Positions 1,457 to 64,000 of a DNA stretch of 64,000 nucleotides are shown piece after piece. The stretch lies in the NCBI GenBank assembly GCA_038087875.1, contig CM075989.1, forward strand, positions 14,014,001-14,078,000, in the 5' to 3' direction. The stretch comes from Malacoraja senta. Its lineage: Eukaryota. Under the pieces are notes generated by a model that saw nothing but the letters and a program-made list of their open reading frames with translations, was not told the origin of the DNA and searched no databases. Both the position numbers and the translations under genes were made by a program. Every line of letters starts with the position of its first letter. Within the stretch, counting starts at the first letter, position 1.

Positions 1457-1494
1457 TACTCCTGAACATCCGCCATCTTGGTTGGTAGCTTCTC

Positions 1495-1900
1495 CATGGA
1501 TTGTCACCTTGTCGTGGTGGAGAAGCTTGGTCCTGATATCCTGAGAACGATGCCATCTGGAGCTATGCTCCTGGTAGGACCACCCATGGCGATAAGGTCG
1601 AGCCGGAGGACTCTGACAAAGAGCAATCCAACCAAGACCACAACGGCGGAACAGGCGGAGGATGATGGCTGACCTTAGTGGAGCGTCACAGCGGCTGGGA
1701 AGGCAGATGAAGGATGCAGTAGAAAAGGGTCTCCGGTTGTTTTGGACTCCATGCCACTGGATCCTGACCCAGATCTGTCAAGGATGCTGTGGTGGCTGTC
1801 TGTGCACCAGACTCCCCATGTTAAGCAAAGTCACGCACTGGCGTCCTCCGACCATGGAGACACCCATGGTCAGCCATGAGCAAAGGGGGCCTAAGAAGGT
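1495..1900 (+). mobile_element. RTE-clade (Expander/Rex3-like) 5'-region-derived fragment
   Basis: CACCTTGTCGTGGTGGAG...GAGCTATGCTCCTGGTAGG..CACCCATGGC...CTGACAAAGAGCAATCC resembles RTE 5' UTRs as I recall them. Confidence 0.4.
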
Positions 1901-2104
1901 AGCTTCAAAGGTTGATTAGTGCATGTTAAAAATCCCACCTGAATCAATAACTAATTCTCCCTGGAAAAACAAGAAATGTGAACCGATGCTGATAAATTCT
2001 TTGTGCATAAACAGGGAGTTCCGGGAATATGATTAAACTAAGAAAATGAGCCAAAAACAATACAAGGAATAACAAAAAATCCTCTTCCTTGTCTGCAGTA
2101 TCTT

Positions 2105-3845: not shown

Positions 3846-3889
3846 AGTACCTATCTGTACACCATATATTTTACTTACAATTTTTAATT

Positions 3890-4840
3890 GAGTCACAGAA
3901 TCATACAGCTTGGAAACAGCCCATTTGGCCTGACTTGTCTATGCCGACATGTGGGCAGCCTTCACGTCATCATCCTGCACTTGTTCATAGTCCTCCATGC
4001 CCAAGCAATTCAAGTGTTTATCTTAAATGCTGACCCAGTTCCATCAACTCCCTCAGCGAGTGCATTCCAGGTACTCTCCACTTTGGGTGAAGAAGATCCT
4101 TTCATATCCCCTTTAAATCTCTTCCCTCTGACCATAAACCATAAACCTATTTTCCCTCCAGTTTAATCCATCTCTGATAAGGGGAAAAGCTTCCTGCAGT
4201 CTACCTATCTGTACACCTCATAATTTTATATACCTCAATCATGTTCCCTCTTAATATCCTCCACTCTAAGAGAAAAGACATAGCTTCTACTGTCTCTCCT
4301 CATAACTGAACTGCCCTGTCCCAGGAAATATCCTGGTGAATCTTTTCTATACCTTCTCCAGTGATATCACATCTTTCCTGCACCTAGACCAGAACTTCAC
4401 ACAGAACACCCGCTGAGGTCTGACAAAAGATTTATAAAGTAGGAAATTAACCTCCCTACTTTATATTTCATGCTCCAATTAATGAAGTCCAATATCCCAA
4501 ATGCCTTCTTAACCCCATTGCTGCATTGCACCTAGGAGGATATTTGGACGTACTCTATAGTCCATCTGTTCCTCAGAGGTGTATATCCTGGCCTCAACAG
4601 TGCTGCCAAAATGCATCACATCTCATCTGTCTGGATCAAACTCCATCTGCCATTTTTCAAACCCATTTCACCAACACATCAATATCTCTCCACAGCCAAA
4701 GACTACTCTCCCCACTACCAAAAATTCTGCCAATCTCCATGTCATTTGTAAACTCACTGATTTTCCCACCCACATCCACACCCAAGTCATTCATGTATAT
4801 TATAAACAGCAAGTTTCCAGCACCAATCTTTGGAAACAGG
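3890..4840 (-). mobile_element. Old degenerate CR1-like LINE 3' fragment
   Basis: Diverged equivalents of the CR1 3' region (GGAAACAGCCCATTTGGCC, ATCCTGGTGAATCTT, CCAAATGCCTTCTTAACC). Confidence 0.65.
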
Positions 4841-5819
4841 CCATTGTATGTTGTTTGTGGGGTGAAAATTAGAAGTTAGTGCGACTTGGGTGGGGGAGGG
4901 ATAGAGAGTGAGGGAATGTTGGGGCTACCTGAAGTGAGAGAAATCAATATTTCATTCTGTCGGGAGAGGGGGTTCCCCTCTCCCATCATAGACGAGGCAC
5001 TCATGTATCCTCGGTAGCTCACAGCTCCGCCCTTGCTCCCCCTTCCCCTAATCGCAACATAGACAGAATCCCCCTAGTCCTTACCTTCCACCCCATCAGC
5101 CGTCGCACACAACACATAATCCTCCAAAATTTCCGCCACCTCCAACGGGATCCCATCACTAGCCACATTTTCCCATCTTCACCCTTTTCTGCCTTCCGCA
5201 GAGACTGTTCCCTCCGCAACTCCCTGGTTAACTCATCCCTACCCACTCAAACCACCCCTTCCAAAGGTACCTTCCCCTGCAACCGCAGAAGGATGCAACA
5301 CCTGTCGCTATACCTCCTCCCTCGACTCTGTCCAGGGACCCCGACAGTCCTTTCAGGTTAGGCTGAGGTTCACTTGCACCTCCTCCAATCTCATCTACTG
5401 TATCTGTAGATGTGGACTCTTATACATCGGCAAGATAAACGCAGACTGGGCGATTGTTTCGCAGAGCACCTGCACTCAGTCCGCGTGAACCAAACCTGAT
5501 CTCCCGGTTGCTGGACACTTTAATTCTCCTTTTCATTCCCACACAGACATTTTTGTTCTCGGTCTCCACCATTGTCAGAGTGAGGCTAAATGGAAATTGG
5601 AGGAACAATATATCATATTTCGCTTGGGCGGCTTACAGCCAAGTGGTATGATTATTGATTTCTCTCATTTCAGGTAACCCCGGCATTCCCTCACTCTCTA
5701 TCCCTCCTCCACCAAAGTTGCACTAGCTTCTCATTTTCACCCTACAAACAACTTACAATGGCCTGTTTCCTTTATCATCATTACTTTTTTGCATATTCAT
5801 TGTTCTTTATCTCTCCACA

Positions 5820-6890
5820 TCTATATAACTAAAAGTCTCATCTTGACCACTTCCTGTCTACATTGTTAATTGATTTTAGAAAAAACGCTACCCTATATCG
5901 CTATGTTTTTTGCCATCTTACTCACAGTCCTCCTCCGCTGCAGCAGCCCCAAGGGACTTTTCCGATCGCTGGGAAAAAAAAAGTATGAATGTTTAAAAAT
6001 CTTGAGATCAGCTGATTGGTCCTCTCGCCTGTCGATCACCAATGATAAAGGTAAAGCCCCATCCGGGGGGGGAGGGGGGCAGGAGTATAAAGCCCCAGAT
6101 GCCGGACGTCAGTCAGTCACTCTGGAAGATCGTGAGGGAGAGTCCACAACTGTGATTCTAAGCTGTGAGTCAACTGAACCGTGAGTCTGCAATATACTTG
6201 CAATAAATTATTTGTTAGCCCTAAATGAAAATGCAATGAGTAGTTTGGCCTGCCTTGTGCTTGAAACTGCAATGGAAATGGAAATTAAATGAAAATGCAA
6301 TGAGTTGTTTCGCCTGTCCTATGCTTTTGTTTTGCTTTGCCTTTGCTTTGCTTGACCTCACCTGAAATGAAAGCAAATGGATTGTATTGTTGGCTGGCCC
6401 CTGTGCTTGACTTGACTTGACTTGAAATGGATTGACTTGACTTAAAATGGATTGACTTGACTTGAAATCAATTGACTTGACTTGACTTCACTTGAAAGGG
6501 ATTGACTTGACTTAACTTGACTTGAAATGGATTGACTAGACTTGACTTGACTTGACTTGAAATGGATTGACTTGACTTGACTTGAAATGGATTGACTTGA
6601 CTTGAAATGGATTGACTTGACTTGACTTGTAATGGATTGACTTGACTTGAAATGGAATGACTTGACTTGAAATGGATTGACTTGACTTCAAATGGATTGA
6701 AATGGATTGTTGGCCCTGCACTCACTGTGCTTGACTTGACTTAACCCACAACACCCATGCTAGTGCTCCAGAACCCCCCCCCCCCTCCCACTGGCCACCA
6801 ATATTGGAATTGGTGGAGAGGTGGAATATTGCGTTGGGGGACCAGCCCTCCCGCGTGAACCTGGGACCCAACGGGTTCTACTTAGTCTAG
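5820..6890 (+). mobile_element. Non-autonomous Helitron
   Basis: Starts with TC (5820), ends with CTAG (6887-6890), has a subterminal hairpin GGGACCCAACGGGTTCT (~6863-6879), and sits between A5819 and T6891 with no TSD. The flanks rejoin as CTCCACA/TCACTGTCTATATC. Confidence 0.8.
6405..6705. repeat. Compound microsatellite (TTGAC)n interspersed with GAAATGGA, inside the Helitron
   Basis: Directly visible tandem array. Confidence 0.95.
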
Positions 6891-7055
6891 TCACTGTCTA
6901 TATCTCTCATTTCCCTTATCCCTAACCAGTCTGAAGAAGGATCTCAACCCGAAACGTCACCCATTCCTTCTCTCCAGAGATGCTGCCTGTCCCGCTGAGT
7001 TACTCCAGCTTTTTGTGTCTATCTTTGGTTTAAACCAGCATCTGCAGTTCCTTAT

Positions 7056-7545
7056 ACAACCTACAAATCTGTACATCTTTGGAGTGTGGGAGGAAACCGA
7101 AGATAGATACATAGATACATAGAAAATAGGTGCAGGAGTAGGCCATTCGGCCCTTCGAGTCTGCACCGCCATTCAATATGATCATGGCTGATCATCCAAC
7201 TCAGTATCCCGTACCTGCCTTCTCTCCATACCCCCTGATCCCCTTAGCCACAAGGGCCACATCTAACTCCCTCTTAAATATAGCCAATGAACTGGCCTCA
7301 ACTACCCTCTGTGGCAGAGAGTTCCAGAGATTCACCACTCTCTGTGTGAAAAAGTTTTTCCTCATCTCGGTCTTAAAGGATTTCCCCCTCTTAAAGGATT
7401 TCCCCCTTAAAGATGTCGGAGAAAACCCACGCGGTCACAGGAGAAACTCAGCACAGACAGCTACCATAGTCAGGATCATACCCGGATCTCTGGCGTGTAA
7501 GCGCTGTAAGGCAGCAACTCTACCACTGTGCGACCGTGCCACCTT
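7056..7545 (-). mobile_element. tRNA-derived (V-SINE/HE1-like) SINE interrupted by a short CR1 3' fragment (~7101-7410)
   Basis: SINE head reads GGCACGGTCGCACAGTGGTAGAGTTGCTGCCTTACAGCG on the minus strand. The CR1 piece is nearly identical to 2105-2400, with a possible AAGAT target duplication. Confidence 0.85.
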
Positions 7546-8379
7546 AACATTAGCAAAGGCACACCTTTGGGCTGAATGAAAACCTCTGAATCAAATACAA
7601 TTACACCCCAGTATTGTGCACCCATGACACAAGTTCACATCATCTTGTACAACAGTTGTGACCATCTGACTGCAGAGTTGATTTGTACTGTAAGTCATTT
7701 CGCACCAATACAACGTGTAGCTATGTATAATGCGTAACCCAAAAGACTAAGTGGTACAAAAATAGTCTGTCACATTTATCTTGTTTGATGTTTAATACTT
7801 TTGACAGAAAATATCTGTAGTAACTTTCTTGATGAAGCATATTCATCCCCAGAATGGAATTGATTGGAGCTGAATTGTGCAGATTGACAGGCTAGGTTAA
7901 TAACATGGGAGTTCAATTCCTTGGAAGAAGGTCAAAGTGACATTTTGGAAAATCATCTTTTTGTTTGGTCATTGCTGCAGTTTTTATGGTGCCAGTTGTT
8001 TTGTAAGAACTGTTTGCTTATTTTACTTAACCAAAGTGAGCCAAAAGGAAATGATCTATTCCAATCTGTCAGAGATGGAGTTTAGAAAAACACCCGAGGA
8101 TAAGAAGTACTTTCTATCAATCAGTGGATATTTTCTTAGCAGAACAGAACACAAATTAATTCAGCCATTTGATTTAAAGGCACATTAATTTCCCTTGCAG
8201 TTGCAATCTTGATTAAACAGGTTTGATATAATCAGCTCATTCCATGCTTCCATCTTTAGTGAGCTAGTAAGCAGCAAATGTTTACCACTAAATGCCAAAG
8301 ATGTAGATGATTCTTTGGGTGGGTTATTATCAAAGCCTTCATTATGGGAAACCAGATGGGTTGGAAAATTAATTCATGA

Positions 8380-9145
8380 TCATGGAGTCATACAAGATAG
8401 AAACCAGCCCCAGAATCTCCATTCTCACCATCAAGTAGCTATTTCCACTAAACCCATTTATCACCACTCGATCTATAGCCTATCATGCCTTTGCAATTTA
8501 AGTGCTTGACAAGATCCTTATTAAGTATTGTGAGAGTACCTTTCTCCCCACCTTTTCCGGCATTGTGTTTCAGACTTTAACCACCTTCTGTGTGAAAAGG
8601 TTATTCCTCATATCCCCTGTAGATCTCTTACTTCTCACCTTTCACCTATGCCCTCTGGTCCTGGGCATCTTTATCGCAAGGAAAAGTTTCTTCCCTCTTT
8701 ATGCCTGTCATCAATTTGTACACCCTATCGAGTCTCTCCTCAGCATCCTCTGCCCCATGGAATATAAATGGAGCATATCGAGTCTCTCCTCATAGCTGAA
8801 ATGTTCCATTCCAGGCAACTTCCTGGTGAATTTCCTGTGCACCCTTTCCAGTGGAATGATGTCCTTCCTATAGTTTGGTGACTATGATTGCACACAATAT
8901 TCTTGCTATGACCTAACTAATATTTTATACAGCTGTCCCAAGATTTGCCTGCTTTTATATTTGATGCCCCATCTAATGAAGCAAGCAACCCCTGTCTGCT
9001 TCTGCACCACCCTATTCAGGGGTGCTGCATCTTTCAGGGTCTATGGACTTGCACAACAAGGGACCTTTGTCCCTCACTACTACCTTGGATGCGACCATAC
9101 ATGGTATATATCCTCCCCTTGTTAGAACTCCCAAAATGCAAGGTT
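8380..9145 (-). mobile_element. Old CR1-like LINE fragment
   Basis: Degenerate CR1 3' motifs (ACCACCTTCTGTGTGAAAA, CCAGGCAACTTCCTGGTGAAT). Confidence 0.65.
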
Positions 9146-11329
9146 TCCAAAAGCATCACATATTTTTGAGGGAATGAGGGTCATAAATTTAAAAAAATCA
9201 AAAAGAGTACAGTTTATGTTGCAGAAACATAAACATTGCCTTAAAGTTGTTTTCTTAAAATGGACTGAATGCAACCAAAATCTAATTTCTGTGCAATTCC
9301 TATGACTTGGATTTTAATATAATGACATACTGTGTCCAATATTTCAACATTCAGATGTCACTTTTCATGTTAAATTTAATGATTCAAAAGTCTTAAGGGT
9401 GTGTTTAAGTGAGATCATTTGCAGGAACTATAAGGCAATTACTATCTGTGTGAAATAGAACAACATACCACAATAAAAGGTTTAACCATGATGTAAGTCA
9501 TTTTCAGAGGGAATTCCCTCAGGATCAAGGATAACTTACTTTTTGTGAGCTCTGGGGTTTATGAGCCCAATGTGGGAACCACAGACGCTTCCACAGAGGG
9601 AGAAGGAGGTGCATGGCTAGGAAAGCTTATGGGTAGTTTTTGAGACACAAGGAACTGCAGATACTGCAAAATACAAAGTGTTGGAGTAACCCAGCAGGCT
9701 AGGCAGTATATGTGGAGGAAATTATTGGGCGATGTTTTGGATCGGGATCCTTCTTCAAACAGATCATAGTGCGGGCGAGGGAGAAAGCTGGAAAAGAGGT
9801 GGGGGCCGGACCGAGCCTGGCAAATAATAATTGGATATGAGTAACAGGGAGGTTTAACCCCCCAATCTCTTTTCAAGCTTTCTTCCACCTACTACAATCA
9901 GTCTGAAGAAGGGTTATGACTCAAATGTTGTCTATCCATCCACTCCACTGTTGCTGCTTGACCTGCAGAAATATGCAGAAATGGGGTAACTTTTAAGATG
10001 GTGTGCTCCTTCTGCTATTTTACATGACTTCTGTGTGCTCCAAATATTTTCAATTGTGGTTCTCAACACCATCCTAAATGGTTCTTCTTGGTTGTGAGTG
10101 GTTAAGAGCCAGATATTCCCACGAATCACGGGGATATTGCATTTTTTTCAAGGTGACTTTGAGCACATCCCTATGTCTTTTCCACTTACAGCTTGGTAAT
10201 ATCTTCCCACGACAGAAGAGCGAATAGAGTGTGTTTCAGGTGTTAGGCATGTGAAAAAATGTGGTCTGCTTAATGAGAGAATCGAGTGTTACTAGGTTAT
10301 GTTGGTCTGGGAGACAAAACTGATGTTCAAAAATGATCATTCTGATGAATTTGGAGCGTTTTGTGGAAATAACATTGATATTACTTTATCTCAGATTCCA
10401 AAGCACTGTTGCAATTGCCAGTAAGTTAGTTGATGGAGACGGTAACTTTTCCGCCCAGAACATCTTTGAACTGTTAGCCTTGGCAGCGACACCCAGATCC
10501 TGTACATACCAATTTTAAAACAAACGAATTACGCAATGTTGTGTAACTAGGTGTTTTAATGTTGTAAACAGGTTTGAATTGGGCAATCAACATGAAGATG
10601 CAATGCAGCTCCTCCCCGGTTCACGACAGGGTTCCTATCTGAGAACTGTTCCCATCCCGAAAACTGTTCCTATCCCGAACAGTTCACAATTCAGAAAAGC
10701 GACCATCCTATAATATTTTTAAATAGAAACGTAGACGAACTGCGGGAAACCCATAGTTAAACTGGAAGAGGGGGGTTAAGTGAACCATTCAGAGTTCCCC
10801 GTAATGTCAGGCGTTGTAATCCGTGGAACACCTTTAAACGAATTTTCAGCATCAATTCGGTATGAACTTGTATGCTCAAGTAATATGGTGCGAGTTCCTC
10901 AGTCTTTGACAAAAACCCACAGCAACAATGTTTGAGCATACTAGTATTACTGAGGGAGCGCCATCAGAAAAGTTGCAACTAAATCTTGTCCGACCAGTCA
11001 CATTGTACCGATCAGTAAGTGGAAAAGACATAAGGATGTGCTCATTATTGAACCACACTACCTGATCTTCCCTTCTTTTAATTTGGCCGGTCATGGTTTA
11101 CTTACAGCAGAGACCAATTACAGGTGGAAGAGCGGTCGTTCGTGTTCAACAGAAAGATTCACGATTACACCTCATTTTAAGTGTTCTTTGAAAATAAGCC
11201 TCTTCTTACTCATTGCCTTGCATTTATTGAAACGTTTGGAGCTTCAGGAACACATTTCCCAGTTTAAAGGGTTGAAAGTTAACACAAGGCTCTTACTTGC
11301 CAGTGAGACGACAAGATCCCGAGGTCTCG

Positions 11330-11479
11330 GGGCCCCGCCTACAGATGGAGGTGATTGGTGAAGGGCGGCATAATCTGCCCAGAGAGACAAGGCTGATTGG
11401 CTACAGCGCCTGTCAATCACCGAGCGGTGACGCCCCCGCGGAGGGCGGACAGTTGAGCGCGCGCGGCGGGGTCGTGAAC
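11330..11479 (+). promoter_or_regulatory. CpG-rich promoter/5' UTR of the UNC13-like gene
   Basis: GC boxes (GGCCCCGCCT ~11331, GGGCGG ~11363 and ~11443), two inverted CCAAT boxes (GATTGG ~11353, ~11395) plus TCAATC ~11413, CpG-rich, directly upstream of the ATG at 11480. Confidence 0.7.
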
Positions 11480-11501
11480 ATGTCGCTGTTGTGCGTTAAA
11501 G
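11480..11501 (+). CDS. UNC13B-like: UNC13-like coding exon 1 (MSLLCVK/V)
   Basis: ATGTCGCTGTTGTGCGTTAAAG|gtaata; matches the Munc13 N-terminus MSLLCV. Confidence 0.92.
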
Positions 11502-11844
11502 GTAATACTTCAAAGTGCCGTCTTGTTATTTATCTATTTAAATGTGCCATGCAACATGTATTTGCTGAATTGTACTCGACACATCACAAGTTGCTGAACG
11601 AAACTTACTTTGGTTGTGAGGCGAGGTGGAATCGCTCGCAGTTTAAAATGTTCATGTTTAAAGGGGAGCAGCCGGGAGCGTCCCGCCCTCAGCTGTGGAC
11701 CAGTTTAAAGTTACCGGCAGCTGAGGCAATGCCAGGGTCCCGTCGCACTCACACCACGGACAGATAAGGGACCCCGGGGCACGGCCAGCGCGTCAAGCAC
11801 ACCTGGAATTACAATACAGAAAACAGGGTCTGTGTTATATCAGT

Positions 11845-14210
11845 CATAGAATTATCCAACATGGAAGCAAAGCTCTTCAGTCCAACTTGTCGTTGATGAT
11901 CAAAGTACCTTGAGCTCGTCCCAATTTCCTTTATTTGGCCAATATTCCGTTAAATCTTTCCTATTCATGTACCTGTCCAGATGACTTTTAAACATTGTAA
12001 TTGTTTCTGCTTCAATAACTTCCTTTGACAGGTCACTCATATATATCCATGTCCCTAGGTGCGAAAAAGTTGCCCATCAGATCCTTTCTAAACCTTTCCA
12101 TTCTCGCCTTAAATCTATGCCCTAGTTTTAGACTCCCCTACCCAGGGAAAAGACTGTGATCATTCAATTTATCTATGTACCTCATGATTTCATACATCTC
12201 TGTCATACATCATTCCCCAGCCTCCTATGCTCCAGGAAACCAGGGAAAAAAAGTATCTGTTCCAGTCTCTCTCCACTCAAGCCCTCCAGTACTGGCAACA
12301 CCCTCCTGAATATTTTCTGCATCCTTTCCAGATTAATGACATCCTTCCTATAGCTGGATGACCCGAACAGCATTCCCTCAACAAATCCCAGTGACAGAGA
12401 GCTCCACCTTCCTGTCAGTCTTATGAATTTTCAGTTGGATTTGTTGGGGATTATTTTATATAATTTTTTTTCTCCTTTACAAATGGAAAACATCTCAACT
12501 TTATTCTTATTAAAATCCTTACTAACATTTTAGATCGCACCATCTTCTGTTCTCAAGAGGAAAGAATGCTCATCTTATTCTGTGTTACTGTATGGTCCCA
12601 GCTAATCTGTTTTAATCTTTGGTGGCTCCATGTGCTTCAGACCACAATCTGTGCATGACACTAAGTGTGTTCTACATTCTAATTAATGTTTGAAACACAT
12701 TTAATGTAACTTTAAAAAACATATTTCCATTAAAAATACAATATATAAAGGGCCCTACTAGAGAGGACACAGCACTGGACATCCTCATTGGGAAAGAAGT
12801 AGGGCCAGTGACTGAAGTGTCAGTGGGGAAGCACCTTGGGACCAGCTATAATGCTTTAATAATTAGTTTTAAAGTAGTTTAGGAAGAACAATAACATTTG
12901 GCCCACAAGTTAAGGTCCTAAATTGGAGTGAGGCTGAATTTGGAGACATTAGCCAGGATCTTACAGAGATCGATCAGGTGAGTCTTTGTAGGTAATGAAT
13001 GGATTGCAATTGGGGTGCTTTCAAAAGTGAGTTGGAATGAATTCAGGTACAGTGTGTTTGTGTTCGGATAAAGGACAAGGCTGGCAGGTTAAGGGAATGC
13101 TGGTTGTAAAGTGATGTTGAGGCTATGGTCATGAAAAAGGAGGTTTAGCCAGTTGGGATCAAGTGAATTCCTCTGCGAGTATACCTAAGGCCATCAGGAT
13201 GGTTAAAAGATGTCAAGAAGTGGATCTGCCAAGCAAAGTAAAGGGAAATCCAAGAGATTCTACAAGTTTGTAGAACTTGTTTCCCTAGTACAAGGGTGCC
13301 TCGGGAAAGAATAGGTCCCCTTAAAGATCAGCATGGCTGTCTTTGTGTAAAGCCACAAGAAATGGGGGATATAATTATTTCTCATCTGTTTTTATGAAGG
13401 AGTTGTGCTCTCGTGGAACATTTATGAATTAACAAAGAGGAGGTATTGGCAGTTTTAAAGTGCCTTAAGGTTGATAAATCCCCAGAGCCTGATCAAATGC
13501 ATTCTTGGACCTTGTGCATTGGAAACATCTAGACAGGTACAGAAACATTTAGACAGGTACATGGAAAGGGCAGGTTTAGAGGAATATGGGCCAAATACAG
13601 GCAGGTGAAACTAGTGTAAATAGGACATGTTGGCCAGTATGCAAGTTGGGCCGAAGGGCCTCTTTCCAAGCTGTAAGACTCTATGACTCTGACTACACTT
13701 GGAGTATTGTATACAGTTCTGGTTGCTCAGCTACAGAAAATATGTCATTAAGGTTGGAAAGGGTACAGATTAGATTTACCCGGATGTTACTTGGATTTAC
13801 AGGCTTGAGTTATGGAGAGAGGCTGCACAGGTTGGGATTATTTATTTATTTATTTATTTTTGTTGCATTGAAGGCTGAATGGTGACCTTATTGAAGTAAA
13901 ATCATGAGGGTCATAGATAAAGTGAATTTTTTCCAGGGTAGAAGATTCTAAAGGGCGTAGGATTAAGGTGAGAGGGGAAAGATTAAAAACAGACCATGGG
14001 CAACTTTTTCAATGAAGAATAAGCTGCCAGAAGCTATAGAATTGCATACAATTAGGACTTTGAAAAGCTGTTAAGCACCCACACACCCCAGATATACAGA
14101 GATAAAGAGATTAAAGGGAAATGGGCCAAAGGCAGATAAATGTAGTAGTCCAGAATGCCAGCTTTGTGGTGTGGAGAAATGTGTTTGAAGGACCTGTTTC
14201 CATGCTGTAT
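11845..14210. mobile_element. Cluster of old CR1-like LINE fragments in both orientations
   Basis: Degenerate ORF2 remnants (e.g. KVDKSPEPDQ ~13467, HLEYCIQFW ~13697) and 3' tails GGGCCGAAGGGCC...TGT. Confidence 0.7.
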
Positions 14211-14852
14211 ACAGGCCCATACGAAGCTTTCCAAAAAGGGGGGTGGTATGACAGGATTACAAAAAATGTAATATGAAATAATGTGCGCGCTGCGCACATC
14301 ACGAGCGTGAAGCGTGAAGTCCCTCGATGCCAGGGTCTAGGGAAGCTCTGGGGTTTTAGATGCTCTCTGATGCATTCTGAGCCTTATTTTGGAGCATTTC
14401 TGCACCAAATTTATGACCAATATTTCAGAAATTAAGAGGAATCTGAGGTAGCTTTTTCACACAAAGGGTGGTGGGTGTATGGAACGAGTTGCCAGAAGAG
14501 GTAGTTAAGGCTGGGACTATCCTAATGTTTAAGAGAAATTTGGACAGATTTAGATGGATATGGGCCAAACGCGTGTGAGTGGGACTAGTTTAGATGGGAC
14601 ATGTTGGTCGGTGTGGGCAAGTTGGGCTGAAGGGCCTGTTTCCACACTGCCTCATTCTATGACTAAAAAGTTAAGAAGAAAAATGCATGTAGATAAGTAG
14701 AGCAGATTTGAAAGAGGAGTGAAATGTAAAGGCAGAGAGAGGTTTATGGGTGGAAAGGAACATAGGAAAGGAGAGGGGAGAGTGGGCTTGGGCAGATGGG
14801 TGAAGAGAAAATAGACACAATGTGCTGGAGTAACTCAATGTGCTGGAGTAAC

Positions 14853-16420
14853 CCAGATAGGCTGCATCCCAGAGTACTTAAGGAAGTAGCTCCAGAAATA
14901 GTGGATGCATTAGTGATAATTTTTCAAAACTCATTAGATTCTGGAGTAGTTCCTGAGGATTGAAGGGTAGCAAATGTAACCCCACTTTTTAAGAAGGGAG
15001 GGAGAGAGAAAACGGGGAATTACAGACCAGTTAGTCTAACATCGGTAGTGGGGAAACTGCTAGAGTCAGTTATTAAAGATGGGATAGCAGCACATTTGGA
15101 AAGTGGTGAAATCATTGGACAAAGTCAGCATGGATTTACGAAAGGTAAATCATGTCTGACGAATCTTATAGAATTTTTCGAGGATGTAACTAGTAGAGTG
15201 GATAGGGGAGAACCAGTGGATGTGTTGTATCTGGACTTTCAGAAGGCTTTCGACAAGGTACCACATAAGAGATTAGGATACAAACTTAAATCACACGGTA
15301 TTGGGGGTTCAGTATTGATGTGGATAGAGAACTGGCTGGCAAACAGGAAGCAAAGAGTAGGAGTAAACGGGTCCTTTTCACAATGGCAGGCAGTGACTAG
15401 TGGGGTACCGCAAGGCTCAGTGCTGGGACCCCAGCTATTTACAATTTATATTAATGACCTGGATGAGGGAATTGAAAGCAACATCTCCAAGTTTGCGGAT
15501 GACACTAAGCTGGGGGGCAGTGTTAGCTGTGAGGAGGATGCTAGGAGACTGCAAGGTGACTTGGATAGGCTGGGTGATTGGGCAAATGTTTGGCAGATGC
15601 AGTATAATGTGGATAAATGTGAGGTTATCCACTTTGGTGGCAAAAACGGGAAGGCAGACTATTATCTAAATGGTGGCCGATTAGGAAATGGGGAGATGCA
15701 GCGAGACCTGGGTGTCATGGTACACCAGTCATTGAAAGTAGGCATGCAGGTGCAGCAGGCAGTGAAGAAAGCGAATGGTATGTTGGCCTTCATAGCAAGA
15801 GGATTTGAGTATAGGAGCAGGGAGGTTCTACTGCAGTTGTACAGGGTCTTGGTGAGACCACACCTGGAGTATTGTGTACAGTTTTGGTCTCCAAATCTGA
15901 GGAAGGACATTATAGCCATAGAGGGAGTGCAGAGAAGGTTCACCAGACTGATTCCTGGGATGTCAGGACTTTCATATGAAGAAAGACTGAATAGACTTGG
16001 CTTATACTCGCTAGAATTTAGGAGATTGAGAGGGGATCTTATAGAAACGTACAAAATTCTTATGGGATTGGACAGGCTAGATGCAGGAAGATTGTTCCCG
16101 ATGTTGGGGAAGTCCAGGACAAGGGGTCACAGCTTAAGGATAAGGGGGAAATCCTTTAAGACCGAGACGAGGAAAAACTTTTTCACACAGAGAGTGGTGA
16201 ATCTCTGGAACTCTCTGCCACAGAGGGTAGTTGAGGCCAGTTCATTGGCTATATTTAAGAGGGAGTTAGATGTGGCCCTTGTGGCTAAGGGGATCAGGGG
16301 GTATGGAGAGAAGGCAGGTACGGGATACTGAGTTGGATGATCAGCCATGATCATATTGAATGGCGGTGCAGGCTCGAAGGGCCGAATGGCCTACTCCTGC
16401 ACCTATTTTCTATGTATCTA
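14853..16420 (+). mobile_element. Young CR1-clade LINE, 5'-truncated, RT domain open from 15048 to 16331
   Basis: 427-aa ORF with canonical CR1 RT motifs; upstream TGA at 14961 replaces the W of PEDWR. Inserted into a Penelope-tail-like element (TGCTGGAGTAACTCA...GGGTCAGGCAGCATCT). Confidence 0.97.
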
Positions 16421-16809
16421 TTTTCTAATGGGTCAGGCAGCATCTGTGGAGAATATGAATAGGCGATGTTTCACAGAATGCTGGAGTAACTCAGCGGGTC
16501 AGGCAGCATCTCTGGAGAACATGGATAGATGACATGTCACAGGGTGCTGGAATAACTCAGTGAGTCAGGCAGCATCTCTGGAGAAAAGGTATAGATTATA
16601 TTTCGGGTCAAGACCCTTCTTCAGTAATATTCATGATGTGACATGCATAGACATTCCTGAATGTTACCCAAACCATCGTGAGCTACTTTGTTACGGTGCT
16701 TGCCCTCTCCTATAACGTATCTGCTGCCTTGGGTGAAGCAGGACAGGACACAAGCTTTGGGACACGGTGTGAAGCTGTTGCCGTCTGTCCCAGCCTGGTA
16801 AAAACCTGG

Positions 16810-54052: not shown

Positions 54053-55289
54053 TGTAGATTGATGATGCATGTGAATCAATCACACTTAGCCAGCATCACT
54101 AACTCCACCCCATTATAACATTTATACTAACGCCCATTCCCAGCACCGTTAGTTGAAGCAGCCAGGATGAACTGACAACACCTCGTTTTGTAATGCTGCC
54201 AAGTTAATGTGCTGATTAAAGATGTGTGTAAATCTTATACAGTTTGAAGTGATTTACATGGTGTCAGAAGTGGGATTAATGCACAGGTGGATTTCATCCT
54301 TTCCCTTCTTGACTGTGGCAATCATGGTTGAGACCCAGTCGGTGGGGTCGCTGACTGCTTCAATTATGCCTTTGGAGACCATGTCCTTCAGCATAGAGTG
54401 AACCCTGTCAGTCATGGCAAATGACAATCTGTGCGGGTTTCAGACTACGGGTGTCACATCGGGGTCAATAATAATCTTGTAGGACACAGGCAACTTGCCT
54501 AGGTTGTTGAAGCCCGCCACTATCCAGCAACGTCTCCAAGAGAAGCACGACATCCAGAAACGGTCATACGACAGTTCCAGCAGACCACTCCAGCCTCTAC
54601 TGCCGGGCCAGGTCATCCGTCTACGAACTCCAACTGGACATTCTCGTCTGGGCGTTGTTGTACGCCCGACTGATGAGCCGCGATCGTACCTTGTGGACTG
54701 TGAGGGAGCGGTTTACCGGAGAAGTCGACAACACCTGCTTGCTGTGAAGGAGCCCCGACCACCACCTGCTGATCCCTATGCTCCGCCGCTCCAGTTCCAG
54801 CCGCCTTCCGCAATGTCTCCCGCCCGTCCACGCATGCCTGGCACCCCCCACGTCCCTCTGTCTCCACTAACCACGGGGTTACACCCACCGCATGTTTCCC
54901 CCCTCGGTCACCACAATCCTCTCCCGTGCGATTTTCACCTTCAGCCTCTCCGCCTAATCCTTCAGTTGAGGGAGGGGATGGTTGGGTCCGCACGCGCTCG
55001 GGCCGTGTTAGTAGACCACCAGACAGGTATGGCAAGTATGTTTAATACACTTCCTTTCCACATTTAATCTTTAGGGGGAAGGATGTAGATTGATGATGCA
55101 TGTGAATCAATCACACTTAGCCAGCATCACTAACTCCACCCCATTATAACATTTATACTAACGCCCATTCCCAGCACCGTTAGTTGAAGCAGCTAGGATG
55201 AACTGACAACACCTCGTTTTGTAATGCTGCCAAGTTAATGTGCTGATTAAAGATGTGTGTAAATCTTATACAGTTTGAAGTGATTTACA
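54053..55289 (+). mobile_element. Miniature gypsy (Mag-like) LTR retrotransposon: two 206-bp LTRs, PBS-Leu, inverted RT fragment, integrase 3' end, PPT, 5-bp TSD
   Basis: LTRs 54053-54258 and 55084-55289 (TGTA...TACA; one mismatch seen by eye). PBS TGGTGTCAGAAGTGGGAT 54259-54276, complementary to the tRNA-Leu(CAA) 3' end as recalled. PPT AGGGGGAAGGA 55073-55083. TSD GATAC at 54048-54052 and 55290-55294. ORF 54495-55067 has L.PGQVIR...PRSYLV...YRRSRQHL. Confidence 0.95.
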
Positions 55290-56325: not shown

Positions 56326-56375
56326 AGGCTGGGATCCCCTGAATTAAGGTATTAATTTTTGTTATTTCGTTAAAT

Positions 56376-57380
56376 ACCCCAGCTATTTACAATATATATT
56401 AATGATTTGGACGAGGGAATTGAATGCAACATCTCCAAGTTTGCGGATGACACAAAGCTGGGGGGCAGTGTTAGCTGTGAGGAGGATGCTAGGAGGCTGC
56501 AAGGTGACTTGGATAGGCTGGGTGAGTGGGAAAATGCATGGCAGATGCAGTATAATGTGGTTAAATGTGAGGTTATCCACTTTGGTGGCAAAAACAGGAA
56601 AGTAGACTATTATCTGAATGGTGGCCGATTAGGAAAAGGGGAGATGCAACGAGACCTGGGTGTCATGGTACACCAGTCATTGAAAGTAGGCATGCAGGTG
56701 CATCAGGCAGTGAAGAAAGCGAATGGTATGTTAGCATTCATAGCAAAAGGATTTGAGTATAGGAGCAGGGAGGTTCTACTGCAGTTGTACAGGGTCTTGG
56801 TGAGACCACACCTGGAGTATTGCGTACAGTTTTTGTCTCCTAATCTGAGGAAAGACATTCTTGCCATAGAGGGAGTACAGAGAAGGTTCACCAGACTGAT
56901 TCCTGGGATGTCAGGACTTTCATATGAAGAAAGACTGGATAGACTTGGCTTGTACTCGCTAGAATTTAGAAGATTGAGGGGGGATCTTATAGAAACTTAC
57001 AAAATTCTTAAGGGGTTGGACAGGCTAGATGCAGGAAGATTGTTCCCGATGTTGGGGAAGTCCAGAACAAGGGGTCACAGTTTAAGGATAAGGGGGAAAT
57101 CTTTTAGGACTGAGATGAGAAAAACATTTTTCACACAGAGAGTGGTGAATCTCTGGAATTCTCTGCCACAGAAGGTAGTTGAGGCCAGTTCATTGGCTAT
57201 ATTTAAGAGGGAATTAGATGTGGCCCTTGTGGCTAAAGGTATCAGGGGGTATGGAGAGAAGGCAGGTACAGGATACTGAGTTGGATGATCAGCCATGATC
57301 ATATTGAATGGCGGTGCAGGCTCGAAGGGCCGAATGGCCTACTCCTGCACCTATTTTCTATGTTTCTATGTTTCTATGTT
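56376..57380 (+). mobile_element. Young CR1-clade LINE 3' portion (second subfamily)
   Basis: ORF 56407-57279 RT C-terminal half. Tail is (TTTCTATG)n, versus the ATAGATAC-type tail of the other young copies. Confidence 0.95.
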
Positions 57381-57574: not shown

Positions 57575-58137
57575 TGAAAGAGCTAATAGTCAAATCTAAT
57601 AGTCAAATCTAATAGTCAAATCTAAAATTGAGTCGTTCTTCTACAAAAGCATGGTCCAGTAAAACAAAAGAATGGCTCGGTGCCAAGTCTGAATGACATT
57701 GTAAATTATATGGAACACAATATGGAGGACAGGTTGTCTTTTCAATAAAGACGTTAAGATGGCAGCCTGCGTAATAACATGCGCTTTTCAATGCCATAAA
57801 GAAGCCAAGATTGAAAAAAATAGCTGACGCTCCAGAGATAAGTAATAACTTGTTATTGGATGAGCTTGATTTGGACCCAGCTTTCATATATTCTGAAAGG
57901 CTGCAGAATCTTTCAGTCATGCCATATTCAGACTTGGTAGGAGTGTTTTACTGATAAGAAAAATGTATAATTGTGCGAACTGCCCTTTGTTCTGTGAGTG
58001 GGAGCCCGAGAAGCACTGAGCAACATTTGTGCTCATTGTAGATCGCCACTCCCGTCTGACAAATCAATTAAAGATTGCTATGGTTTTACCTTTAACAGTT
58101 TTTGTTGCTATCTGCTTTTAAGAAATGAACTTTGACA
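57575..58137 (+). repeat. 5' LTR
   Basis: TG...CA (ends AACTTTGACA). TATA-like TGTATAA ~57964 and poly(A)-signal-like ATTAAA ~58067. The 13-bp unit CTAATAGTCAAAT is tripled relative to the 3' LTR. About 20 substitutions in ~400 aligned bases versus the 3' LTR, counted by eye. Confidence 0.9.
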
Positions 58138-58139
58138 TT

Positions 58140-58159
58140 TGGCTGTAGTCGGCAGGGAT
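58140..58159 (+). promoter_or_regulatory. Primer-binding site, tRNA-Ser-like
   Basis: TGGCTGTAGTCGGCAGGGAT, 2 nt after the LTR end. It matches the complement of the tRNA-Ser 3' end (TGGCGTAGTCGGCAGGAT, recalled) with two single-base insertions. Confidence 0.8.
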
Positions 58160-58718
58160 CTAGCTGGGACCAGCAACAGATGACTGAGTAAGAGGGTGCA
58201 GTTGACCGGGATCTGAAAGGGAGAAAACTGAGCTCTAGTCGGACCCTTTGAGTCTGGCCTCCCGAAGAAGCTCCCGGTAAAAAAAAACCTACGGTCCCTC
58301 AGTCTGTGGTTGGCCAGGTTCCAGACAAGATCCTTAGAAGCAGACAGCAAGGGTAAGACCACTTGTATAAAGGATTGGCTTGTGTATTGGAAATGAATAA
58401 AGGATTGGGCACGGCAGACTAAAGAGGTTTTGTCACAATTAAAGGATTGGACACGGGAGACTTCAAAGTTTTTGTCACTAAGTGTATTGGAAAGACAAGA
58501 TGTGTTGAAAAGAAGTGTATTGAAAAGACAATGTGTCTTGAGGAGACAGTGTTTTGACAAGACTTGTGAATTTGCTACCAGGGAGAGTAGCCAGATTGGG
58601 CTTTATAGACTGCAAAGGTTTGTTACAAATAAAGGATTGGGCTTAACAGGCTGAAAAAGTTTGTTACAATTTGTGTACTAAGTTGTGTACTAAGAAGTGA
58701 TTTGGAGATTCGATAAAC

Positions 58719-58990
58719 ATGGAAATAATTTGGATAAGAGTGACGGAAAGACAGCTGTACAACACATGTGTTATTTGAATCCTCAGAACAACAAGGATTA
58801 TAGAATATTGAATTATAAATTGACCAACGTTTGAGTAATGTGTCTTGACCAGTGGGAGGCATATGAAATGTGGAGACTATTGAAGGCAGAGAGAGAGAGA
58901 GAGAAAGAGGCAGAAAATAAGTGGGTGGGGACGCGAGATAGTAGTTAGATGGATTATGCTTTTTAAAGAGGTATTGAATTGTGGAATAAA
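58719..58990 (+). pseudogene. gag: gag matrix remnant
   Basis: Restoring one G after the ATG gives MGNNLDKSDGKTAVQHMCYLNPQNNKDYRILNYKL; after a further frameshift, RLSNVS*PVGGI*NVETIE. That is an MG start plus a WPxxG-like class-I matrix motif with W codons mutated to TGA. Confidence 0.55.
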
Positions 58991-60240
58991 TACAGAACTA
59001 TTAAAAGAATGGAAAGTACTTCAGACGGAATGCCAGTGGGCAGAGGAATAGGAGATGGGCTAAGGCAGAGAAAGAAAGCGCTGATAAGAGTTCGCAGAAC
59101 AAAGCCGGTACCAATAAGTCTTCTCGAGGTCCACTCGAGACCCTATGTCTGGCAATGGCGACCCTGTCTATAGAAGAAGGGGGAGGTGGCCAATCACAAT
59201 CTGGATCACTGTCCAATCACAGCTCAGACCACTCCCATTTTGAACATTAGCGCGCCCACCATTACATTAAACTACTATCTTTGTTCATTTTAAATTCTCA
59301 CTCCAACAAAAAAGACGACTTTTGCAAACCTCCCAGTCCTAGTTCACAAATTCTGCAAATTGGTTCCCATAGAAACAAAGATTTTTTTAAACCGAACGAC
59401 TTTTGTCAGATAAGGGAGGAGAATGTAAAATTAACACGGAGAGACGTCTCTAATGTTTTGCACGATTTTTTTGGAAACGAGGGGGTTGCGCCACTTTGGC
59501 TAATTCTCAGATAAATTTGTGTAATTGATGTATATTTTGCCTGTTTTTTGTATTACTTTTCTTTCAATGTTCGAAGGGTAGTATGTGTTCAAAACCAAAA
59601 CCAAAAGCTCTCTAAAAAGGTATTTTAAAAAGCTCTTTCAAGTTGTCACCCATCCAAGTTCTGGCTCTTATTTGATTACTTGAATCTCCATTTTCTTTCG
59701 AGTTGTCACTCATCCAAGTTCTGTTTCTTATCTAACTCAAGTGCTCAGTGTTCTTTTCAAGGCATTGCTACCAAGATACTAGCAGCTTCATTTTCCTGTG
59801 TTCAGGATTTCACTGTCTTTTTAATTTCTCCCAAAACCTATCGGGATACTTGACATCCAGGGCCAGGCTATATTCATCTATATACCCCTTTTGATGAAAT
59901 GGTCCATGTCAGATGAAATGGGATGTCATTGAATGAGTTTGCAATCGATGAAAATTAATTGTTTATTCTTTGTTTTCTCTTAACTTTAATTTTTTTTCCC
60001 TATTTCATACCTTTTGAATTGAGTTCAAATAGAGACCTGAATTCCACGATGGCCATGTAGCATTCAGGTAGATGTGTTAGATGAGATTGGAGATGCCTTT
60101 ATCTCAGAACAAAATCTGTTAATTTGAAATTGTAAATTTGGGGAGATAGATTGGAACAATTGGGAATATTTTTAAATTGTTTTTTTAATAATTATCTATT
60201 TTTTAAAGGGTCTGCCTTATAGGTAGTTAATTAGTGATGT

Positions 60241-60555
60241 CACATCCCCCACAACCAGTAGAATTCTGGATTAATGGAGGGAATGAATAGGACACTAAAG
60301 AGCGTGGAAGTTAGTTATGACCTACAGGCCCACAGCAATGAATTAATTACATACACACAGCAATTAAGCACAACCTTGTCAGTCTTGCATTCACAGGGGT
60401 TGAAAACGCAGAAGCCACTGCCAGTTGAACACAGACACCGTCCATACTACTAGGATCGGACAAAATTTGGACTGTGTTGGAGGGGACTGTACCAGGTGTG
60501 ACTATGACACCAACCACCGTGAAGATTGAAGATTACCCCAGTTGGAGACATCTGA
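60241..60555 (+). pseudogene. pol: Retroviral integrase remnants (core fragment and C-terminal domain)
   Basis: HIP...SGLMEGMNRTLK (60241-60300) resembles PQSSGQVERMNRTLK. Then ELITYTQQLSTTLSVLHSQ and, with frameshifts, W.G.YQV..MTPTTVKIEDYPSWRH, resembling gammaretroviral WKGPYTVLLTTPTALKV...WIH. Confidence 0.8.
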
Positions 60556-60570
60556 TAAGATTGACTGTAA

Positions 60571-60681
60571 ATGGAGGAGAACCAAGAAAGGACAATGGGG
60601 CTATTGACCCTACTTTTTATCCTGAGGTTGGCCCAGATGGGCTGGGCTTCGGGAAACAACTGCTGCACCAAGACGTCCTGA
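60571..60681 (+). pseudogene. env: Putative env signal peptide remnant
   Basis: MEENQERTMGLLTLLFILRLAQMGWASGNNCCTKTS*, immediately after the integrase end. Hydrophobic core with a G-W-A cleavage-like site. The frame stops a few codons into the cargo. Confidence 0.6.
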
Positions 60682-60722
60682 ATAAGGCTGACAACTGTCC
60701 TTATGTTTATAACACTGACCAA
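60672..60722 (+). pseudogene. THBS2: Captured thrombospondin type-3 repeat fragment
   Basis: [17 protein letters not shown] resembles THBS2 [17 protein letters not shown] as recalled. Confidence 0.7.
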
Positions 60723-60780
60723 GATGGATCCATTACCACAGGTTCTTGAAGTAACCAGAAAAAGGTGGCAGCTTATCCCG

Positions 60781-61058
60781 GAGCTACAGATCGAGCTGAA
60801 ACAGATGAGAAATGTGCTCACCAATGCCCAGTCTGAAAATGACCATCTCGCTTCCATCACACAGCAGCTGAAGGAGAGCAATCAGGTTGTGGAGTTGAAA
60901 AGCCTTGATTTTGGAGTGCAATTCAGTTACAGAACTGGATTGAGGTAAATCCCAGCCGGGATCAAAGTGAGGAGCTGAGTTGGGATGGATCAGACAGCCA
61001 GTTGGCATTGATGGAGAAGGAAGAAGAATGCTGGTTTCACACACTGATGGACAACTTG
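60781..61058 (+). pseudogene. Captured, scrambled fragments of a CRACR2A/CRACR2B/RAB44-family (EF-hand coiled-coil Rab) mRNA
   Basis: [32 protein letters not shown] and [18 protein letters not shown] resemble CRACR2A segments (recalled: TKAENTKL, LTRIISQLQEA, GEDEEAQFRMLMDRL). Confidence 0.6.
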
Positions 61059-61084
61059 GAAGAAAGAACGTCTCGATTTGTGAA

Positions 61085-61412
61085 AAGAAACTACATTTGT
61101 GATGAATGTGGACAGACTTTCAAACAGCGGAAACAACTGTCAGTTCACCAACTGCGCCATACTGGAGCAAAACCTTTGCAGTGTGAAGTTTGTGGTTTCT
61201 AGTGCAGGCAAAGAGCATCCTTGAAATACCATATGACCAAGCACAAGCCAGAAGCTGAACTTGAATTTGCTTGTGACCAATGTGAGAAGCGATTTGAGAA
61301 GGCTCACAATTTGAATGTTCATATGTCCATGGTTCATCCCTCGACCCAGAGTACAGATAAAAACAAACCTATTGAAATTGAATCATCAGCTAAGTTTGGA
61401 AACATTAATTAA
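61085..61412 (+). pseudogene. ZNF276: Captured ZNF276 C2H2 fingers 3-5 and C-terminus
   Basis: [84 protein letters not shown], nearly identical to ZNF276 as recalled. Premature TAG at 61200-61202; no introns. Confidence 0.92.
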
Positions 61413-61479
61413 ACAGGAACCCAGTTAATAGTTATTCAACAGCTAAATAATGAGTCTAAAGGATCTTGCACCCCTTTTC

Positions 61480-61735
61480 AATGTTAGCAAGACACAAAGG
61501 ATTAACATGAATAAATGCAATCAAGCCAGGCTCACCTATAATAGGTAGAGCAAAGGAAAGGTTATTGTGGAGAACATAGTTCTGAGCATTATAGCACACC
61601 AGTTCCAGAGACAAAGTCCAATGTCTGCAATGGGGTAGAGGTGCATCAGGCAGAATACTAGCAATTGGAAGGACTGTTCAGAACACTGATAACAGAGGGG
61701 AAGAAGCTAATTTGTGTTGTAGTGAGGCAGGGTTC
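61480..61735 (-). mobile_element. Antisense Rex/L2-like 3' fragment inside the cargo
   Basis: Reverse-complement similarity to 30850-31100 (CTTGATTGCATT.ATGTT, TTTGT.TCTGGAACTGGTGTG, TTCTGAAC.GTCC). Confidence 0.6.
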
Positions 61736-61742
61736 AAGTTTG

Positions 61743-62521
61743 CCACAGTTACATCCTGGACATGCATTCAAATCGCAGTGTTGTTTTGAATGAGGGACAG
61801 TGCCCATCCAGTATAAATAAGGACTCAATGGAGGAAGTTCTGGATGGTTCAATAACCCTTTCACCTCGGAATGGAACAGTGACTGAAAATGGTGAGGGTG
61901 ATAATGTTGCGAAGCATCAACCTGCCCCAGTGTTAGCAGACTTTCAGCCTTGTACATATAGTGGAACCACTTCGGCGGATGTGGACAACTGGGAATCCCC
62001 ATTGAAGGATATGTTCTTGCGCTCAGATCCTGAATATACAGAGTGCTCTTGGGAAAAAGTTCAGGTACAAGATGCAACTCAACCATTAAATGTGAAAAAA
62101 AAACAGTTAACTGCAATGAAGCATCTTGTTCTATAAGAAATGATGTTGTGGATGGATTGGAGTCCAGTGATCTTTCTGAAAGGTATTTATCAAGTGAAGA
62201 TAACAGAGAAACAAAAGTTAAGAATGGCTCTTCAGATGAGTCTTTTCAACCATATTGGAAGAAGAAGAGTAAGTTACCAGTTAAACGTGGCCGGAAACCA
62301 AAGTCAAACTTGGAAAGGGAAGATTTCCCCACCATGTATCGATGTCAGTATAAGGGTTGCTGTGCTGTTTACAGAGGAGTTGATGAACTTAAGAAACATA
62401 TAAAAGAGCAGCATGAAGAGGTACGTGAAAGACCTTGCCCCCACCCAGGAGGTAACAAGGTGTTTCTGATTGATCGCTACCAGCAGCACCATGTAAAGCT
62501 GATCCATACAGAAGAAAGAAC
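61743..62521 (+). pseudogene. ZNF276: Captured ZNF276 central region and fingers 1-2
   Basis: HSYILDM..., SSDLSE..LSSEDN...SSDESFQPY, EREDFPTMYRCQYKGCCAVYRGVDELKKHIKEQHEEVRERPCPHPGGNKVFLIDRYQQHHVKLIHTEER. Probable frameshift at the A-run ~62095-62103, second-finger C to G, intronless. Confidence 0.9.
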
Positions 62522-62687
62522 ATCTTTACAGATCAGGAGGAAGTGCAAAGCCTTTGGTCACAACTTCGGGAAGACAAACCACATTTGATCAACAATCTTG
62601 AAGCATTTTGAGCTCTATCGTATGACCAAGGGTCTAGAGAGAGAGAAGCTGAACATTTTGAAACAGATGGAGCTCTTGAAAGAGATT
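62522..62687 (+). pseudogene. Captured CRACR2A/CRACR2B/RAB44-family fragments
   Basis: [29 protein letters not shown] (too short for the ORF track), then [25 protein letters not shown]. These resemble recalled CRACR2A [23 protein letters not shown] and [25 protein letters not shown]. Confidence 0.75.
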
Positions 62688-63375
62688 ATGCATAACCCTA
62701 TCCAGGAAGACAATGACTCTGACCTGGTGGGTAATCAGTGTGATGACAATCAGGACATTGATGAGGATGGCAATGATGGCGTTTCTGATGAGAAGGACAA
62801 TTGCCGTTTTGTTCCCAACCCTGACCAGATCGATGCCGATGGTGACAGCAGAGGAGACAACTGCAAAGACGACTTTGACAACAACATCCCAGATATCTAT
62901 GACATGTGCCCCGAGAACAGTGCCATCAGTGAGGCTGACCTGAGGAAGTTCCAAAGGGGACGATGCAGATTGTTCCTAAGTGGGTAGTGCACAACAAGGG
63001 CAGGTAGTGCACAACAATGTTACCTTCTACGTCAACAGAGACCACAATCTATGCTGGCTTTGTCTTTGGCTTGCAGTCCAGCAGCCGCTTCTACGTGGTG
63101 ATGTGGAAGCAGGCCATCCAAACCTACTGGGAGGAGAAGCTGTCCAAACCCATGGATACGCTAGCGTCTAGACCAAGGTGATGAACCCCACCACAGGATA
63201 AGAGGGGGGAGCACCTCACCTGTGCAACGATCTACGAAGAGACTGGCAACACCCTCGGACAGGTGCGAACTTTATGGCACAACCCCAATATCGGCTGAAA
63301 GGATTACACCGCCTACAGGTGGCACCTGATCCATTGACCCTAAACAAGCTTCATCAGGATGGTTGTCAATGGTTG
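62688..63375 (+). pseudogene. THBS2: Captured thrombospondin (subgroup A, THBS2-like) type-3 repeats and C-terminal lectin domain, internally deleted
   Basis: [87 protein letters not shown], then [55 protein letters not shown] with stops and frameshifts. Intronless. Confidence 0.9.
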
Positions 63376-63399
63376 TCAATGAAGAGAGTGAGAACTGGT

Positions 63400-63557
63400 T
63401 GCCAGTTGGTTTGATGGACTTTGGGGTAGTATTGAACTGGTAGCCATACCTTTTGTTTGATGGACTTTGGGGTACTGTGATATATTATGGCTCTATCATT
63501 CTGCTAATCATTGCTCTAATACTTGCGACCATTGTGTATACCTACCGAGGACTGTGA
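63400..63557 (+). pseudogene. env: env transmembrane-anchor remnant
   Basis: ASWFDGLWG, and after a 20-bp duplication (GTTTGATGGACTTTGGGGTA twice) FDGLWGTVIYYGSIILLIIALILATIVYTYRGL*. This is a Trp-containing membrane-proximal stretch plus a hydrophobic anchor directly before the PPT. Confidence 0.7.
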
Positions 63558-63574
63558 ATGTTATCACATTTGAT

Positions 63575-63587
63575 AAAAAGCAGGGAA
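63575..63587 (+). promoter_or_regulatory. Polypurine tract
   Basis: AAAAAGCAGGGAA immediately before TGAAAGA of the 3' LTR (MLV-like junction). Confidence 0.85.
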
Positions 63588-64000
63588 TGAAAGAGCTAAT
63601 AGTCAAATCTAAATTGGAGTCATTCTTCTACAAAAGCATGGCCTAGAAAAACAAAAGAATGACATTGTAAATTATATGGAACACAATATGGAGGACAGAT
63701 TGTCTTTTCAATAAAGACATTAAGATGGTAGCCTGCGTAATAACATGTGCTTCTTTTCAAGGCCATAAAGATGCCAAGATTGAAAAAAATAGCTGATGCT
63801 CCAGAGATAAGTAATAACTTGTTATTGGATGAGCTTGATTTGGACCCAGCTTTCTTATATTCTGAAAGGCTGCAGAATATTTCAGTCATGCCATATTCAG
63901 ACTTGGTAGGAGTGTTATACTGATAAGAAAAATGTATAATTATGCTAATTGTCCTTTGTTCTGTGAGTGGGAGCCCGAGAAGCACTGAGCAACGTTTGTG
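63588..64000 (+). repeat. 3' LTR (runs off the window end)
   Basis: Direct repeat of 57575-58030 with a 21-bp deletion and a 3-bp insertion. Confidence 0.92.

Follow-up and report, generated by a model that had tools for sequence, protein, structure and literature searches.

How did pieces of several host genes come to lie between what look like the two ends of a retroviral env gene in the skate Malacoraja senta, and did they ever encode a protein? We analysed a window of 64,000 nucleotides around this locus (the whole stretch of DNA examined). From 57575 to the end of the window lies a defective, non-autonomous LTR retroelement. Its frame comprises the following features.

57575..58137, forward strand: 5' LTR, bounded by TG...CA, with 390 of 409 aligned bases matching the 3' LTR
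58140..58159, forward strand: primer binding site, starting with TGG two bases past the LTR end
58160..60234, forward strand: leader and decayed internal region, without intact gag or pol and with no retroviral Pfam match
63575..63587, forward strand: polypurine tract
63588..64000, forward strand: 3' LTR, truncated by the end of the window

Pairwise alignment of the two LTRs gave a K2P distance of 0.048 (4.8%; 390/409 aligned bases identical) with 4 gap events. TG..CA LTRs, a primer binding site (which we take to be tRNA-Ser-like) and a polypurine tract are all present, as in class I (gamma/epsilon-like) endogenous retroviruses (ERVs), and are found in other LTR elements too. The internal region contains donor-like GT dinucleotides at 58188 and 58353 and an acceptor-like AG at 60208. 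No gag or pol open reading frame is left in the element, Pfam was blank for retroviral domains, and reverse transcriptase (RT) is absent. A stretch at 58719-58830, presumably a decayed gag-like start that resembles class I matrix N-termini, had no Pfam match. The LTR pattern had no match in the viral and metagenome collections, and an Rfam search gave none. A match to L001, 25 residues long, was rejected as chance. At 57575-57625 and 57670-57690, the 5' LTR carries a tandem triplication of short units as well as a 21-base stretch absent from the 3' LTR.

Other repeats lie upstream in the window. A near-intact 3' piece of a LINE RT (56374-57340) carries a 301-codon ORF; further copies, at 2105-3531 and 15004-16421, match it at 94-98%, and the LINE family is a young one. 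The small element at 54053-55289 has identical 206-base terminal repeats (at 54053 and 55084); it is a very young miniature LTR element, and its interior is presumably a Gypsy-like integrase end. An array of a 10-base unit, ~450 bases long, occupies 6326-6770.

Three short stretches inside the LTR element flank the host-derived cargo.

60235..60565, forward strand: integrase-like remnant in two frames, assigned from motifs
60571..60672, forward strand: env-like start with a signal-peptide-like core, assigned by position; its last bases, AAG, fit the exon half of a splice-donor consensus
63385..63557, forward strand: env-like end, with a Trp-containing stretch present twice, a hydrophobic anchor and a stop at 63555

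We take the integrase-like remnant to be the end of the integrase core followed by C-terminal motifs. Downstream of it, a frame of 36 codons that encodes a hydrophobic core starts at the ATG at 60571 and is terminated by the TGA at 60679. At the other end, the anchor is a 19-residue hydrophobic stretch within 63444-63554 (KD 2.63), 20 bases upstream of the purine tract and then the 3' LTR. A preliminary description of this DNA had named these two stubs as the retained parts of env. The layout, the hydrophobic cores and the position agree with that, but no database search matched either stub to env. The anchor stub had no match among 1.84 billion representatives, and none of the 48 candidates for a read of the integrase-like remnant plus signal peptide matched env or integrase. 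The stubs and the integrase-like remnant were blank against PDB and Pfam, the stubs giving only an unrelated hydrophobic Pfam match under the cut-off. These blank searches are weak, because the queries are short and decayed.

Hydrophobic pieces of this kind also arise by chance. Of the 239 ATG-started, stop-free 36-mers on the forward strand of the window, 12 (5%) equal the signal-like stub in hydrophobicity, and the hydropathy of the anchor is reached by 6 stop-free pieces in the six frames of the 64 kb. Given this frequency, both stubs are env-like mainly by position. The 5% figure and the blank searches would fit the notion that the stubs are chance sequences or further host scraps and not env. 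However, they occupy exactly the positions of the env start and end in class I ERVs, past the integrase-like motifs and ahead of the polypurine tract, and we regard this notion as very improbable.

Between the stubs lie pieces of host genes and one repeat.

60672..60722, forward strand: THBS2 piece 1, aa 810-826, in the integrase frame; the signal-peptide frame differs
60723..60897, forward strand: BICD1/2 coiled-coil piece (Pfam BicD, E 6.8e-11 and 3.2e-10), the first ~28 bases without assigned parent and the borders approximate
60898..61059, forward strand: CRACR2-like piece 1, which contigs of two runs connect to 62515
61060..61599, forward strand: 3' part of ZNF276, aa ~516-631, with its stop at 61426-61428 and a probable 3' UTR
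61600..61708, unstranded: fragment of a high-copy repeat, recognised by contig depth, with loose ends at both borders
61740..62522, forward strand: middle part of ZNF276, aa 244-518
62515..62684, forward strand: CRACR2-like piece 2, part of its interior lost
62685..63384, forward strand: THBS2 piece 2, covering type 3 repeats and a truncated lectin domain (aa 843 to ~1132 of 1175)

The order is thus THBS2, BICD, CRACR2-like, ZNF276 3' part, repeat, ZNF276 middle, CRACR2-like, THBS2. The first and last pieces come from thrombospondin, as described before: both best match skate THBS2 (aa 810-826 and 843-1131). ZNF276 is confirmed as well, at 83% to Leucoraja and Amblyraja; the nearest relatives of the cargo are skates. 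The earlier list, right on thrombospondin and ZNF276, had overlooked BICD (Pfam BicD, E 3e-10) and the high-copy repeat at 61600-61708, which has a summed depth of 175,000-309,000 in three DNA-type runs. The BICD piece had no match in PDB. Two further pieces had been called CRACR2. Both are present in the cargo (60898..61059 and 62515..62684), and we keep the name as a presumed one, from resemblance; the protein atlas, PDB and Pfam were blank for them. Both are intronless copies: the ZNF276 piece is contiguous over aa 244-518, and in THBS2 no intron interrupts the exon boundary at aa 850/851. The integrase-like frame is open from 60429 to 60749. It crosses the start of env and enters THBS2 piece 1, and THBS2 there is in phase with pol and not with env.

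We found that the host pieces are nested like dolls, with THBS2 outermost, BICD and the CRACR2-like pieces next and ZNF276 innermost. In the parent protein, only 16 residues separate the two THBS2 pieces, which end and begin at aa 826 and 843 and here enclose all other cargo. Among 15 joints listed of 180, one contig connects 60721 to 62686, and contigs of two runs connect 61059 to 62515 with four bases between; the source of either joint may be the parent gene or a simpler element. Whichever it is, the cargo is nested, because the outer pieces are natural neighbours.

Drift of the proteins gives a relative age. We compared the THBS2 pieces with 25 homologues and ZNF276 with 17, and scored changes at invariant and variable positions (one copy, at the protein level, CpG effects ignored, a few changes beside frame breaks included). 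In THBS2, 18 of 141 invariant positions had changed, compared with 15 of 79 variable ones (p=0.24); for ZNF276 the counts were 8 of 140 and 15 of 220. Invariant residues had therefore changed about twice as often in THBS2 as in ZNF276 (18/141 vs 8/140, p=0.06). From half the LTR divergence, 5.3% change is expected; ZNF276 is consistent with this (p=0.85) and THBS2 lies above it (p=0.0005). Because the load of THBS2 exceeds the LTR expectation while that of ZNF276 fits, we conclude that THBS2 was captured earlier and was drifting before this copy inserted. The claim that thrombospondin came first and the other genes later is thus borne out by the neighbouring THBS2 pieces, the 60721-62686 joint and the roughly twofold change at invariant residues.

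The composite has been amplified as a multi-copy family. We looked at siblings through public contigs of other runs (32 contig pieces listed of 28,177; run X15 is RNA only by guess). Among the listed contigs, five internal junctions are bridged in runs of three organisms: BICD/CRACR2 (X2), CRACR2/ZNF276 (X15), ZNF276/CRACR2 (X1, X13, X15), CRACR2/THBS2 (X1, X15) and THBS2/anchor (X13, X15). Some of the bridging contigs are ~91% alike and therefore come from other copies, and most junctions are common to contigs of other runs, as in an amplified family. The summed depth of the cargo was 950-15,000 in three DNA-type runs, compared to 26-46 for left-flank contigs, although depth is no copy number. 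The border between flank and LTR is bridged by contigs of X2 and X13 (two organisms), and the data suggest that the nested-cargo insertion is common to both. The junction of signal peptide and THBS2 was bridged by none of the 32 contig pieces listed (of 28,177). Contigs of X2 and X13 also skip 490 bases (62638-63129), from CRACR2-like sequence to the THBS2 lectin domain, indicating more deleted subfamilies.

Was the THBS2 cargo once displayed? The preliminary description had proposed an ancestor that encoded signal peptide, thrombospondin and membrane anchor as one protein. That is, a skate retrovirus would have taken the RGD-bearing end of THBS2 between the env signal peptide and anchor, and a THBS2-only ancestor would have made an in-frame protein from the env mRNA, displaying an adhesion ligand on virions or cells, until later nested captures overwrote and ruined this RGD surface adhesin. 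There are real points in favour. The junctions are tightly placed: the cargo begins ~8 codons past the likely cleavage site and ends shortly upstream of the anchor. The RGD motif is retained in THBS2 piece 2 (62850-62858), THBS2 is the oldest cargo, and in v-sis a host gene is already known to lie within env (PMC13297096). Sibling contigs also vary in length at the THBS2/anchor end. Phase therefore differs among copies, and an in-phase 3' junction is possible in part of the family. In the present copy the end of THBS2 and the anchor do not share a phase, and local duplications lie in this zone.

The 5' junction speaks against such a protein. THBS2 homology begins with codon 810 (60672-60674), one base off the signal-peptide frame. 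The TGA at 60679-60681 lies inside THBS2-derived DNA (homology from 60672/3), and the env frame stops after 3 codons. Because the homology begins at codon 810 in the integrase frame, this TGA is off-frame THBS2 sequence and not a later nonsense change. The earlier view that the frames are broken and not coding now is correct in that nothing is coding; it erred in taking this TGA for decay. In the siblings, no length variant lies between the ATG and the THBS2 start among 12 variants listed of 115, and no substitution affects the TGA at 60679 among 40 listed of 739, both weak negatives.

The state of the cargo adds to this. The lectin domain ends ~43 residues early (Pfam position 154 of 198; residue 581 of 634 in PDB 1yo8), and of the 366 THBS2 residues between 810 and the C-terminus ~229 remain. 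Piece 2 has internal losses at ~871-902, 967-971 and ~990-1015, five frame changes and in-frame stops. Internal losses are common to sibling contigs, which also span the one at ~871-902. We saw no sign of purifying selection on the THBS2 cargo in this one copy; invariant residues are unprotected, having changed about as often as variable ones. The drift data may be compatible with a brief early functional phase. A single in-phase junction, such as the 3' one may be in some siblings, has a 1-in-3 chance. Given an off-phase 5' junction at an exon start, a truncated lectin domain and no purifying selection, we consider a displayed ancestor improbable. If true, it would be a natural replacement of env by a host matrix protein, and a natural precedent for ligand-displaying envelopes.

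The position of the 5' junction points to a different origin. A catshark gene model (one of 39 proteins compared) lacks exactly aa 810-850, indicating an exon that starts at codon 810, and human THBS1 exon 16 presumably begins at the matching codon with a phase-1 intron there. These two lines fix the exon start to the codon level, and the 5' cargo junction falls on it at that level. The last viral bases before THBS2 codon 810 are AAG, favouring a splice. A junction at a host exon start is what the read-through capture model predicts (PMC4997597, PMC4276931).

We think it probable that THBS2 was captured by a splice plus a template switch, that serial template switches in a helper-dependent element followed, and then amplification, the env ends being leftovers. 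The carrier would be a non-autonomous class I-like skate ERV family that collected host RNA in rounds. We infer that the provirus sat in an intron of THBS2 and that its transcription read through into the host gene. A cryptic donor close to the start of env would have been spliced to the THBS2 exon, and RT would have returned onto viral RNA shortly before the anchor, regaining the polypurine tract and 3' LTR. The env start would yield only a 36-residue peptide because the splice joined differing phases. A helper virus would have supported later rounds of replication, in which RT switched templates to co-packaged mRNAs and so brought BICD and CRACR2-like sequence into THBS2 and next ZNF276 into CRACR2; the order is that of the nesting, and the switches are the presumed mechanism. 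The composite was then amplified. The env stubs would be what any internal replacement leaves behind, and the cargo neutral filler. This origin has to accept as a coincidence that both junctions lie within ~10-15 codons of the signal peptide and the anchor.

It is also possible, though unlikely, that every junction, including env/THBS2, came from template switching on co-packaged mRNA and that the exon-start position is chance. Switching is the usual route of LTR-mediated retrocopies (PMC5131818), and among ~ten junctions it would not be unusual for one to fall close to an exon start (roughly 10% by our estimate). But the coincidence would fall at the one junction that read-through predicts, and there the element apparently shares one base with the THBS2 parent (by protein-level inference). 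An 11-base repeat at the two ends of ZNF276 (61059 and 62511) is a candidate for microsimilarity at switch points.

ZNF276 itself is circularly permuted, and the permutation starts and ends at the same codons. Rather than a circular RNA, we favour a single mRNA that was cut where RT entered it and on which RT switched twice. RT would have begun in the middle of the ZNF276 message and copied what lay upstream. It would then have moved to the downstream fragment, still uncopied, and run off at its own entry cut, which we propose as the reason for the permutation. The element resembles circRNA-derived pseudogenes, which are described (PMC4897178) as non-colinear in gene order, associated with LTR elements, present in many copies and defined by a back-splice exon-exon junction. 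Unlike in these, the ZNF276 join goes from the last exon and probable 3' UTR through the repeat to mid-coding sequence, stop codon included. A circular RNA is disfavoured because a join that takes in the last exon and a repeat is unlike back-splice junctions.

The oncogene v-sis is reportedly an env-frame fusion. Maize Bs1 and human FAM8A1 are said to carry host gene pieces amplified by an LTR element, and Bs1 to be protein-coding, unlike the skate element, in which nothing is coding. In v-sis of simian sarcoma virus the host gene lies in env and lacks its first exon (PMC13297096). The skate element is similar in having host sequence within what looks like env, upstream exons missing, and a presumed dependence on a helper. 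Its 5' junction likewise falls at an exon start, at the codon level. Unlike v-sis, with its translated and selected product, the skate junction is out of frame with the signal peptide in the present copy, and the cargo is truncated, drifting and neither intact nor selected.

The closest likeness is to LTR-mediated chimeric retrocopies (Tan et al. 2016, PMC5131818), in which the ORFs inside an LTR element give way to partial mRNA copies that lack introns. That paper names Bs1 and FAM8A1 among retrocopies, and describes a mouse four-gene locus in MERVL, 'Super', with a repeat, 8 switch points and further amplification. The skate element has host pieces flanked by LTRs, replaced ORFs, partial intronless copies and amplification with shared junctions, and so belongs with these retrocopies. 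Like 'Super', it combines several parents with a repeat and was secondarily amplified as a non-autonomous element. It differs in its single-point permutation, in its divergence gradient from piece to piece and in being multi-copy in several organisms; its nesting may or may not be shared by 'Super'. Nesting, permutation and spread make it a notable example of these retrocopies. A literature search, with most subscription papers outside its scope, found no report of this nested-cargo ERV family, nor of thrombospondin together with endogenous retrovirus, retrocopy and env.

On this reading, the locus clearly preserves how a single retroviral lineage of a cartilaginous fish took up host RNA again and again, and the order of events can be read from the nesting and the divergence. 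Splicing seems to have made the first junction and template switching those that followed, and ZNF276, permuted at a single point, would show RT back at its own entry cut. Such families also call for a warning, as they seed many false gene models for THBS2, ZNF276, BICD and CRACR2 and cause reads to be mis-mapped. Because there are many copies and intermediates may survive, models of how oncogenic retroviruses capture host genes would be testable on a germ-line series.
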